Assembly: GCF_057098645.1 (NCBI RefSeq)
Contig: NZ_CM169472.1
DNA length: 64,000 bases
Reading direction: 5' to 3' (one strand)
Part shown: in pieces, positions 12,204-40,956 of the stretch
How the letters are laid out: each line of letters opens with the position of its first letter
How positions within the stretch are numbered: position 1 is the stretch's first letter
The notes under the pieces: generated by a model
The model's database searches: none
Seen by the model: the letters and a program-made list of their open reading frames with translations, nothing else
Told to the model about the DNA's origin: nothing
Program-made: the position numbers and the translations under genes

Positions 12204-12279
12204 GGCCCCTTAGCTCAGTGGTTAGAGCAGGCGACTCATAATCGCTTGGTCGCTGGTTCAAGTCCAGCAGGGGCCACCA
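12204..12279 (+). tRNA. ileX: tRNA-Ile2 type with CAU anticodon (lysidine-modified isoleucine tRNA)
   Basis: 76-nt cloverleaf GGCCCCTTAGCTCAGTGGTTAGAGCAGGCGACTCATAATCGC...GGGGCCACCA; anticodon loop CTCATAA; encoded CCA end. Confidence 0.85.
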
Positions 12280-38190: not shown

Positions 38191-39156
38191 ATGAATACTG
38201 TCGGCACGCCGTTGCTATGGGGCGGATTCGCTGTTGTTGTCGCCATTATGCTGGCTATCGACCTGTTGTTGCAGGGGCGTCGTGGGGCACATGCCATGAC
38301 CATGAAACAGGCTGCGGCCTGGTCGCTGGTCTGGGTGACGCTGTCGTTACTGTTTAACGCCGCTTTCTGGTGGTATCTGGTGCAAACCGAAGGTCGCGCC
38401 GTTGCCGATCCACAGGCACTGGCCTTTCTCACGGGTTATCTGATTGAGAAATCGCTGGCGGTCGATAACGTCTTTGTCTGGCTGATGTTGTTCAGCTATT
38501 TCTCCGTTCCGGCGGCATTACAACGTCGCGTGCTGGTGTATGGCGTGCTCGGGGCGATTGTTCTGCGTACCATCATGATCTTCACAGGCAGCTGGCTGAT
38601 TTCGCAGTTCGACTGGATCCTGTATATCTTCGGTGCCTTCCTGCTGTTTACCGGCGTGAAGATGGCGCTGGCCCATGAAGATGAATCAGGCATTGGCGAC
38701 AAGCCGCTGGTGCGCTGGCTACGCGGTCATTTGCGCATGACCGACACCATCGACAACGAGCATTTCTTTGTGCGTAAGAATGGATTGCTGTACGCCACAC
38801 CGCTGATGCTGGTACTGATTCTGGTGGAATTGAGCGACGTGATTTTTGCCGTGGATAGCATTCCGGCTATCTTCGCCGTGACCACTGACCCGTTCATTGT
38901 GCTGACCTCAAACCTGTTTGCGATCCTCGGCCTGCGTGCGATGTATTTCCTGCTGGCGGGCGTAGCAGAGCGTTTCTCGATGCTCAAATATGGCCTGGCG
39001 GTGATTCTGGTATTTATCGGTATCAAGATGCTGATTGTCGACTTCTACCATATTCCGATCGCCGTCTCGCTGGGCGTGGTGTTTGGCATCCTGGTGATGA
39101 CGTTTATTATCAACGCCTGGGTGAATTATCGGCATGATAAGCAGCGGGGAGAATGA
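38191..39156 (+). CDS. alx: TerC-family inner membrane protein (putative Mn exporter)
   Basis: 321-aa polytopic [30 protein letters not shown]... Confidence 0.85.
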
Positions 39157-39258
39157 TCCGCTGTATATTAAGCCATTACTAGAGATAACTCATTCCAGAC
39201 AAAGGTGAGCTATTAATTATGTAATCGGCTTATAGCTCTTTACAAAAAGACCGCACGG

Positions 39259-39460
39259 GTGTTGGTGGCGTCAAAATCGCCGAAGCGTTCCCTTGCGCCC
39301 GAACCGGTAGCCGCAAGGGATAAGCTGAGGGAACCGCGCAGCGGCGATTTTGTTCGCCAGAGCCTGGGGGTGCAGGGGGCGGCGGCGATTGGCCGTCCCC
39401 TGCGCGCTCCTTGCGCCAGTGACTTTATATGGCATAGCACATTAAAGGAGCGCAACCGTT
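39259..39460. repeat. GC-rich nested-palindrome intergenic element of unassigned class
   Basis: CAAAATCGCCG...CGGCGATTTTG arms enclose CCCTTGCG/CGCAAGGG; second hairpin GCAGGGG...CCCCTGC. Confidence 0.4.
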
Positions 39461-39711
39461 CTCATATTCCAAATAGTTTTGCCCATATGTTATCTAATCA
39501 GCCTTAGTAGCCAGTCCTTCCCTCTGTTTATGTCAAATAAATGTAACCATTAAGTTGCAAAACATGAGCTCTCTTTAAAATCCAGCATTTTTCGCTTCCC
39601 GAAGCTGTAACTTTCCTTATACTCGACCTTGCAAACACTTTGTTACATCCTGAAAGATGCGTCGACAGAACGCACCAGGGATGTGCGACAACACAATGAA
39701 AGGATCGAAAA

Positions 39712-40956
39712 ATGACTACGCAACGTTCACCGGGGCTATTCCGGCGTCTGGCTCATGGCAGCCTGGTAAAACAAATCCTGGTCGGCCTTGTTCTGGGGAT
39801 TCTTCTGGCATGGATCTCAAAACCCGCGGCGGAAGCTGTTGGTCTGTTAGGTACTTTGTTCGTCGGCGCACTGAAAGCTGTTGCCCCCATCCTGGTGTTG
39901 ATGCTGGTAATGGCATCTATTGCTAACCACCAGCACGGGCAGAAAACCAATATCCGTCCTATTTTGTTCCTCTATCTGCTGGGCACCTTCTCTGCAGCTC
40001 TGGCCGCAGTAGTCTTCAGCTTTGCCTTCCCTTCTACCCTGCACCTGTCCAGTAGCGCGGGTGATATTTCGCCGCCGTCAGGCATTGTCGAAGTGATGCG
40101 TGGACTGGTAATGAGCATGGTTTCCAACCCCATTGACGCGCTGCTGAAAGGTAACTACATCGGGATCCTGGTGTGGGCAATTGGCCTCGGTTTCGCACTG
40201 CGTCACGGTAACGAAACCACCAAAAACCTGGTCAACGATATGTCGAATGCCGTCACCTTTATGGTGAAACTGGTCATTCGCTTCGCACCGATCGGTATTT
40301 TTGGGCTGGTTTCTTCTACCCTGGCAACCACCGGTTTCTCCACACTGTGGGGCTACGCGCAACTGCTGGTCGTGCTGGTGGGCTGTATGTTACTGGTGGC
40401 GCTGGTGGTTAACCCATTGCTGGTGTGGTGGAAAATTCGTCGTAACCCGTTCCCGTTGGTGCTGCTGTGCCTGCGCGAAAGCGGCGTGTATGCCTTCTTC
40501 ACCCGCAGCTCTGCAGCTAACATTCCGGTGAATATGGCGCTGTGTGAAAAGCTGAATCTGGATCGCGATACCTATTCCGTTTCTATTCCGCTGGGTGCCA
40601 CCATCAATATGGCGGGCGCAGCAATCACCATTACCGTGTTGACGCTGGCTGCGGTTAATACGCTGGGTATTCCGGTCGATCTGCCCACAGCGCTGCTGTT
40701 GAGCGTAGTGGCTTCTCTGTGTGCCTGTGGCGCATCCGGCGTGGCGGGGGGGTCTCTGCTGCTGATCCCACTGGCCTGTAATATGTTCGGTATTTCGAAC
40801 GATATCGCCATGCAGGTGGTTGCCGTCGGCTTTATCATCGGCGTATTGCAGGACTCTTGCGAAACCGCGCTGAACTCTTCAACTGACGTGCTATTCACTG
40901 CGGCAGCTTGCCAGGCAGAAGACGATCGTCTGGCAAATAGCGCCCTGCGTAATTAA
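39712..40956 (+). CDS. sstT: Serine/threonine:Na+ symporter
   Basis: 414-aa polytopic [25 protein letters not shown]... Confidence 0.9.

Follow-up and report, generated by a model that had tools for sequence, protein, structure and literature searches.

The DNA considered here (the window) is a stretch of 64,000 nucleotides of contig NZ_CM169472.1 from the NCBI RefSeq assembly GCF_057098645.1, and the subject of the analysis is a GC-rich block located between the genes alx and sstT. As judged from its alignment and position, this block is a shortened copy of TRIP1d, a known element that belongs to the TRIP1 repeat family, whose members have also been described as RRS (“Replication Risk Sequences”). 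The account as a whole, namely that a TRIP1d copy is present as a 60-bp deletion allele, that it has kept the G-quadruplex (G4) motif of the family and that its gap-forming activity at this place would be weak or absent, is held with high confidence. The assignment is made because the block aligns to the reference and because its offsets and orientation agree with the published ones: positions 39253-39456 of the window align to the TRIP1d reference (NZ_CP027440.1 2251149-2251412) with 4 mismatches and a single 60-bp gap, and both the distances from alx and sstT and the forward orientation are exactly those of the published TRIP1d locus. The copy also falls within the description of TRIP1 elements, which are 146-273 bp in length, contain 62-65% G+C and are present in multiple copies.

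The repeat is non-coding and densely self-complementary, with 204 bp and 63.2% G+C. It lies on the same strand (+) as its two neighbours, alx (38191-39156, +) and sstT (39712-40956, +), beginning 96 bp past the alx stop (39156) and leaving 255 bp between its end and the start of sstT (39712). A preliminary description, made from the letters alone, had placed a nested-palindrome element at 39259-39460, and these limits were essentially right when set against the literature-defined repeat; the three inverted-repeat pairs which it named were all found where it had put them, and a fourth was added. The following features were recorded in the block:

39253..39456, + strand: TRIP1d repeat, 204-bp allele with a 60-bp internal deletion, assigned by reference alignment, locus offsets and a G+C content of 0.632.
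39233-39252, + strand: left extension TAGCTCTTTAcaAAaAGaCC, common to the K-12 dusC copy and weaker elsewhere (pairwise and multiple alignments); similarity to one paralogue begins at about 39233.
39272..39287 and 39337..39352, + strand: inverted repeat I1 (CAAAATCGCCG.../...CGGCGATTTTG; 16 nt, 88% complementary), forming the 5' and 3' arms of the closing stem P1 of domain 1; the 5' arm corresponds to consensus helix 2/3 with compensatory changes, and the 3' arm is supported by I1 and family covariation.
39286..39293, + strand: deletion junction, the single remaining 8-bp direct repeat CGTTCCCT, located by in-silico deletion.
39289..39320, + strand: residual hairpin within P1, inverted repeat I5 (TCCCTTGCG/CGCAAGGGA, 39289-39297 / 39312-39320; 9 nt, 100% complementary).
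39366..39385, + strand: G4-forming motif GGGGGTGCAGGGGGCGGCGG, the polymerase-blocking site of RRS, an exact match.
39372..39403, + strand: GC-rich hairpin of domain 2, inverted repeat I3 (GCAGGGGGCGGC/GCCGTCCCCTGC, 39372-39383 / 39392-39403; 12 nt, 92% complementary), consensus helix 10.
39404..39453, + strand: hairpin of domain 3 with a variable 32-nt loop, inverted repeat I7 (GCGCTCCTT/AAGGAGCGC, 39404-39412 / 39445-39453), the fourth pair, consensus helices 11-12.

TRIP1 was first listed by Rudd (1999), and its types were extended by Li and others (Li et al., 2024, Genes 15:236; PMC10888264). The K-12 copies are TRIP1a, between aqpZ and ybjE/lysO, TRIP1b, between putP and ycdN/efeU and only 146 bp long, and TRIP1c, between yohI/dusC and yohG, to which Li and others added TRIP1d (alx-sstT) and TRIP1e (copA-ybaP); in E. 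coli, 99% of the copies occupy these five fixed loci (PMC10888264). The preliminary description had left the class of the element unassigned. Its placement among intergenic repeats stood, and the name that it lacked, that of the TRIP1d/RRS family, already existed in the literature, although literature searches with the element sequence itself returned only irrelevant matches. The block should be annotated as a TRIP1d/RRS-family repeat, and neither as a gene nor as a new RNA. What goes beyond the literature is only the resemblance to the TwoAYGGAY RNA family and the covariation across genera, both described below.

The inverted repeats exceed chance expectation, since the folding energies far surpass those of shuffled sequences whether the block is folded as RNA or as DNA. 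As RNA, the plus strand reaches -111.4 kcal/mol compared with -88.0 +/- 4.6 in dinucleotide shuffles (z -5.1; 0 of 200 as good) and the minus strand a z of -4.45, while the DNA folds of the two strands gave z-scores of -5.4 and -5.6. The structure of the family was analysed in an alignment of 30 copies from Escherichia, Klebsiella and Pseudocitrobacter. The consensus has three domains with 70 pairs altogether, namely a long stem around a two-hairpin branch, a GC hairpin and a hairpin with a variable loop, and 99.4% of its cells are paired, in comparison with 40-44% when the partners were slid by 1-3 columns. Compensatory double changes were observed at 16 pairs, against 0-2 in the slid controls, and none of 500 shuffles reached the observed values. 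Helix 10 contributes 12 pairs, 4 of them with double compensation and one being a G-T wobble in the window copy (columns 195-212), whereas in helices 11-12 the pair at columns 233-270 is U-A in E. coli and C-G in Klebsiella. Since hairpin 2 varies as GGGGGAGGA...TCCTCCCCC and GAGGGCGGC...GCCGCCCTC, it is the duplex, and not only the G-runs, that is maintained. Taken as comparative evidence, these changes strongly support compensatory selection on the TRIP1 hairpins across the three genera.

Within the same fold, the 3' arm of domain 3 (39445-39456) includes AAGGAG, which resembles a Shine-Dalgarno sequence and is sequestered by pairing, and in several copies an ATG follows it by 6-10 nt and opens mini reading frames of 2-27 codons (ATGAGAGACTGA in the K-12 dusC copy, MMNQHITTS in the K-12 aqpZ copy). 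This candidate was set aside, as the start is absent from the window copy and is not conserved in the alx and putP copies or in most Klebsiella copies. Inside P1, TGGCGTCAAAATCGC (39264-39282) fits the GG-N10-GC spacing of sigma-54 promoters, with TGGCGTCAAAATTGC in the K-12 dusC copy, which may be a coincidence.

The window allele differs from the full-length form by one event. Full-length TRIP1d holds two copies of CGTTCCCT that are 60 bp apart, and when the sequence between these repeats was deleted in silico from the full-length copy L004, the window copy was obtained with 3 mismatches in 207 nt. The segment lost is GGAGGCCGGGGCGACGCGCATGGATGCGCGGCGAGGGCGCATCTTACAGGGACGTTCCCT, the other alx-sstT copies exceed that of the window by the same 60 bp, and these 60 bp are exactly two adjacent hairpins of full-length TRIP1; with respect to the published “double-Y” fold, what remains is the closing stem and both 3' hairpins, the two-hairpin branch being deleted. 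As reconstructed, the 264-bp form gave rise to the window allele when 60 bp were lost between two direct repeats of 8 bp. Among 5426 complete E. coli genomes, TRIP1d was found as a single copy in 1619, and a junction-spanning query recovered the deletion junction in 56 (about 1%). Of these 56, 26 gave identical matches and were mostly named O145 or O145:H28, and the other 30 are more diverged strains. The window copy is 100% identical to that of the O145 strain RM9872, in whose genome 3 matching places are found. Further internal deletions are present in other copies (L051, L052, L045, L044 and TRIP1b). Because the breakpoints sit at short direct repeats in all three copies inspected (L051, L052 and the window copy), decay by slippage looks recurrent in the TRIP1 family. 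Natural alleles are at hand in which the 5' domain is deleted (the window), the first G-run of the G4 motif is deleted (TRIP1b) or the orientation is reversed, and such alleles could help to separate G4-dependent effects on replication from those that depend on hairpins or RNA.

An open reading frame of 82 codons starting with GTG (39259-39507, +) crosses the block, and a small protein encoded by it would be a rival interpretation. The frame does exist, and PGAP annotates WP_001441093.1 (100 aa) over the full-length TRIP1d of E. coli strain EC14 (L008:1216-1518); a 193-aa “Uncharacterised protein” is likewise annotated across the repeat in K. aerogenes (L009:1426-2007). Nevertheless, the frame is open in TRIP1d only, with 2-5 stops in TRIP1a, TRIP1c and the Klebsiella copies and with 1-nt indels separating the genera, no match was obtained in Pfam, and the substitutions follow base-pair compensation and are not codon-like. 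A protein-coding origin is thus extremely improbable, and the annotated proteins that lie over the repeat are probably spurious.

The activity of the family has been described by Pham and others, who equated the RRS near lysO and dusC with the TRIP1 of Rudd (Pham, Wood, Dunbar, Cox, Goodman, 2024; PMC10592627). These sites lie about 650 kb on either side of dif, at 0.915 and 2.229 Mb in K-12, flanking the Ter macrodomain. The motif GGGGGTGCAGGGGGCGGCGG was described for both RRS-lysO and RRS-dusC, on the sense strand, which is the lagging-strand template at both sites. In vitro, RRS block Pol I, II and IV, and in vivo they lower M13 replication; by ssGap-seq, RecA and SSB were found to load at each RRS, ectopic sites included, on a lagging-strand post-replication gap that can reach about 2 kb, while an inverted RRS produced no gap peak. 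At least one RRS is required unless a 200-kb region is amplified, and the deletion or inversion of both alters supercoiling genome-wide (PMC10592627). As shown for TRIP1a and TRIP1c of K-12, the GGGGGTGCAGGGGGCGGCGG strand folds when it serves as lagging-strand template, blocks polymerases and leaves a gap onto which SSB and RecA load. The repeats also provide homology for chromosomal rearrangements, of which 156 TRIP1-mediated events were reported, two of them with TRIP1d (PMC10888264).

In the window copy, the G4 motif is intact, and the long closing stem has been retained together with both 3' hairpins. GC skew on the plus strand of the window is negative in 7 of 8 bins of 8 kb, and in K-12 alx lies on the plus strand at 3.2386 Mb, in the replichore that also contains TRIP1c, the sense strand of the latter being the minus strand. 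Because the skew is negative and TRIP1d occupies the strand opposite to TRIP1c on the same replichore, the G4 of TRIP1d is placed on the leading-strand template; read in this way, the G-rich strand of the window copy is the leading-strand template, opposite to the active RRS. Since an inverted RRS made no gap, no post-replication gap is expected at the window copy. Furthermore, the alx-sstT spacer, at about 3.239 Mb in K-12, is far from the sites at 0.915 and 2.229 Mb. Most likely, the window copy would act at most as a transient obstacle to the replisome or to transcription, as a substrate for recombination and, where the alx transcript ends, as a structure of high stability; alx transcripts probably run into the element. 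It is probably a decaying member of the family and not a regulator dedicated to alx or sstT, and we infer that its function is weak or absent.

Several observations weigh against this account. The polymerase block and the gaps were shown for the lysO and dusC copies only (PMC10592627), and the published RRS activity may be absent at the window copy, from which the deletion has removed about a quarter of the element. The hairpins are kept by covariation even where the G-runs are weakened, for example in the GAGGGCGGC...GCCGCCCTC variant of Klebsiella, which implies selection on the hairpins and not on the G4 alone. In natural strains TRIP1a and TRIP1c are common in both orientations, with reversed copies amounting to 1255 of 4703 for TRIP1a and 2789 of 5741 for TRIP1c (PMC10888264), and this fits poorly with a strict orientation rule. 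Finally, the resemblance to TwoAYGGAY hints at a role at the RNA level that the DNA model leaves unexplained.

TwoAYGGAY (RF01731) is an RNA family with two AYGGAY loops and an often very long P1, known from gut metagenomes, Clostridia and gamma-proteobacteria (Weinberg et al., 2010). If TRIP1 were primarily a structured RNA related to it, transcription would proceed from the 3' ends of genes or from a promoter of its own, the two GGA loops would bind a dimeric protein such as CsrA, and the window copy would be dead because both loops are deleted. The support for such a reading is found in the full-length copies. In a targeted search, full-length TRIP1d aligned to RF01731 end to end (model 1-168) with 33.1 bits and an E-value of 0.0014, its loops CAUGGAUG and ACAGGGACG matching the two AYGGAY loops, and TRIP1c and the Pseudocitrobacter copy scored 30.9 and 29.6 bits, respectively. 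In the opposite direction, a covariance model built from the TRIP1 core alone matched a bona fide TwoAYGGAY over its full length (18.5 bits, E 5e-5, pre-specified region). The loops of full-length TRIP1 are AUGGAU and AGGGAY, and some Klebsiella copies carry ACGGAC or AUGGAC. In E. coli, the loops UUACAGGGAUGU and CACAUGGAUGU are similar to RUACARGGAUGU, the consensus obtained for CsrA by SELEX. The Psychromonas members with which the TwoAYGGAY seed alignment begins are multi-copy, and some have ACAGGGACGU loops. The binding of CsrA to TwoAYGGAY loops was proposed by Gardner and Eldai (2015).

The evidence on the other side begins with the scores themselves, as every TRIP1 score remains under the Rfam gathering score of 43 and one Klebsiella copy had no Rfam match. 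The window copy has neither of the two AYGGAY hairpin loops, although a long closing P1 with 16-nt arms and outer pairs is present, and Rfam returned no match at the element, either in a scan of 38000-40000 at E<=10 or at the gathering threshold over all 64 kb. The portion of the alignment of Weinberg and others that was available contained none of six E. coli, Klebsiella, Citrobacter, Enterobacter and E. fergusonii accessions. A prediction scan of 39100-39720 found no promoter or intrinsic terminator above chance; the sigma-54-like TGGCGTCAAAATYGC and the sigma-70-like hexamers seen by eye upstream were rejected accordingly. In a CsrA CLIP-seq table, neither dusC nor ybjE, although listed, has a peak. 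Among one-sided changes, 12 sites have G-U on the plus strand and 6 have A-C, as an RNA would favour, but the difference is not significant and G-T is tolerated in DNA hairpins too; the RNAalifold energies, -96.5 for the plus and -82.6 for the minus strand, carry a bias from G-U. Moreover, the experimental activity reported for the family concerns DNA only. A primarily RNA-based family is accordingly considered unlikely, and of the structured RNA envisaged by the preliminary description, the conserved fold with strong covariation stood, and any action as RNA is hypothetical.

As below-threshold scores and one Klebsiella copy without a match argue for resemblance and not for membership, the relation between TRIP1 and TwoAYGGAY may be described as an architectural resemblance with possible distant homology. 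It is a tentative idea, with some chance of being right, that the two form one superfamily, in which enterobacterial RRS would also be RNAs that offer two GGA hairpin loops similar to the CsrA consensus to a dimeric protein, or the TwoAYGGAY of Psychromonas and gut Clostridia would trigger gaps at the level of DNA. If this were true, the window allele, in which the two loops are lost and the G4 is kept, would be a ready-made separation-of-function variant. Both types of element occur side by side in Pseudocitrobacter faecalis, where a bona fide TwoAYGGAY (L016:2202-2380, 49.2 bits), the one matched by the TRIP1 covariance model, lies 80 nt from a TRIP1-like copy in divergent orientation and is followed by a terminator-like GC hairpin with a short T run (GGGGGGCGCGGTTGCCCCCCTTTG), as is also seen in P. 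vendiensis (L035:5654-5750).

With regard to other RNA families in the surroundings, the only Rfam match at gathering level in the 64-kb window was one tRNA gene (12204-12276, 73.1 bits). The leader of alx (window 37800-38300) had no Rfam match at E<=1; the 5' untranslated region of E. coli alx has been described as a Mn/pH-responsive element of the yybP-ykoY type, for which a match to RF00080 was expected and none was obtained.

The distribution of the repeat supports its identity as TRIP1d and bears on how the copies have spread. By blastn, all but one of the 5426 complete E. coli genomes (5425) contained matches, at a median of 4 places each, so that the element proved to be multi-copy, and the proposal of a distinct class of intergenic repeat was borne out. 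The E. coli copies are found at four intergenic regions, alx-sstT, dusC-yohP, aqpZ-lysO and, in a short form of about 143 bp, efeU-putP. Copies about 80% identical are present in K. pneumoniae, K. aerogenes and K. variicola, where their loci bear no relation to those of E. coli, with 13 matching places in the 5.37-Mb K. pneumoniae chromosome CP125156.1. An exact scan with the 22-mer TCAAAATNGCNGANNCGTTCCC in 100,044 genomes, one per species, which also returned chance matches, recovered E. coli, E. albertii, E. whittamii, other Escherichia, Klebsiella and Pseudocitrobacter. TRIP1 was additionally detected on tiny contigs of Pseudobutyrivibrio, Ensifer and Bacillus assemblies and of two metagenome-assembled genomes (L014, L046, L047, L015, L030), three of these contigs having 432-583 bp and coverage below 1 and the two metagenomic ones being shorter than 3 kb; such copies in unrelated assemblies are most likely the result of contamination or mis-binning.

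K-12 has no copy at alx-sstT. Its spacer (L003:7550-7740, compared with 39157-39520 of the window) holds an unrelated GC-rich repeat (CCCTCTCCC/GGGAGAGGG/GGGGTGAGGG), for which the matching places per genome number 16 in the median and at most 27, and the two sequences are, on this comparison, alternative alleles of the alx-sstT spacer. At dusC-yohP and aqpZ-lysO, the repeat occurs in either orientation, each with private flanks of 40-70 bp (L001:1440-1830 compared with L006; L005 compared with L050), and the copies that are not in the K-12 orientation are closer to one another than to the K-12-type copy of their own locus. The pattern looks like a replacement of entire spacer cassettes, and not like simple inversion or transposition. 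Klebsiella copies are preceded by a REP unit about 40 nt upstream, and conservation continues for about 65 nt further to the right. In K. pneumoniae strain 176 (L010:1056-1321, 1493-1758), a 437-bp unit composed of REP, a TRIP1-like element and the right extension is repeated in tandem, and L012 has an additional partial copy (hairpin 3 and the extension) downstream. As to their strand, 10 of 12 Klebsiella copies were negative by a local GC-skew proxy that is too noisy to use, and all 12 Klebsiella-type copies were co-oriented with the upstream gene according to crude open reading frames, a result which is automatic in convergent spacers and carries no weight.

These observations could also be accommodated by a MITE-like or REP-like element that is mobile but not autonomous and has hairpins that would be recognised by a transposase acting on single-stranded DNA, the alx-sstT copy being an insertion. 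Presence does vary by strain, with a different repeat in the K-12 spacer, and the two orientations with differing immediate flanks, the 13 places in one K. pneumoniae chromosome, the tandem duplicate and the adjacency to REP would all be in line with mobility. On the other hand, the two ends (ACCGCACGG... and ...GGAGCGCAAC) do not form an inverted repeat and the 30 aligned copies showed no target-site duplications, so that a MITE was rejected; the copy number in E. coli is low and restricted, as described above, almost entirely to five fixed loci; phages gave no match, and the plasmid matches turned out to be pieces of chromosomes or chromosomes under a wrong label; no transposase was found in association with the element, and homologous replacement of spacer cassettes explains the variation equally well. 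Transposition is thus judged quite improbable. A relic of an IS110/IS621 bridge RNA, considered in view of the REP adjacency in Klebsiella, found no supporting evidence.

In comparison with known systems, the TRIP1d copy of the window shares with BoxC a GC-rich, intergenic and, in E. coli, multi-copy character. The K-12 spacer repeat, which is tentatively labelled BoxC-like, does not resemble the window element in sequence, and the earlier suggestion that the latter might be BoxC-like was abandoned, since it is the K-12 allele of the same spacer that holds this different multi-copy repeat. The labels RSA and ERIC were also rejected, literature searches for RSA having given no support. With REP and BIME the similarity is that of GC-rich extragenic palindromes at the ends of genes, whereas TRIP1 is about 265 nt long and has few copies, compared with about 35 nt and hundreds of copies; the GCCGGATG-type core is absent from 39233-39456, in agreement with the initial view that the element is not a canonical REP.

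Similarity to TwoAYGGAY consists of a closing stem around two hairpins in full-length TRIP1, with the loops CAUGGAUG and ACAGGGAYG, of a multi-copy nature common to both families and of covariance-model matches in both directions; TRIP1 differs by its scores of 29.6-33.1 bits, by a second loop that is usually AGGGAY and by its two additional 3' hairpins and G4 motif. The RRS of lysO and dusC are homologous to the window copy and about 88-91% identical over the shared parts, with GGGGGTGCAGGGGGCGGCGG and the downstream GC hairpin identical except for one G-T wobble in the hairpin, yet the window copy is located at another locus that is not symmetric about dif and is devoid of the two-hairpin module found inside the 222-bp RRS. 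The closest system is TRIP1d itself (PMC10888264), with which the window copy agrees in sequence, locus, offsets, forward orientation and the 62-65% G+C range, and from which it differs in that its allele has 204 bp instead of 264 bp and has lost one arm of the “double-Y” fold.

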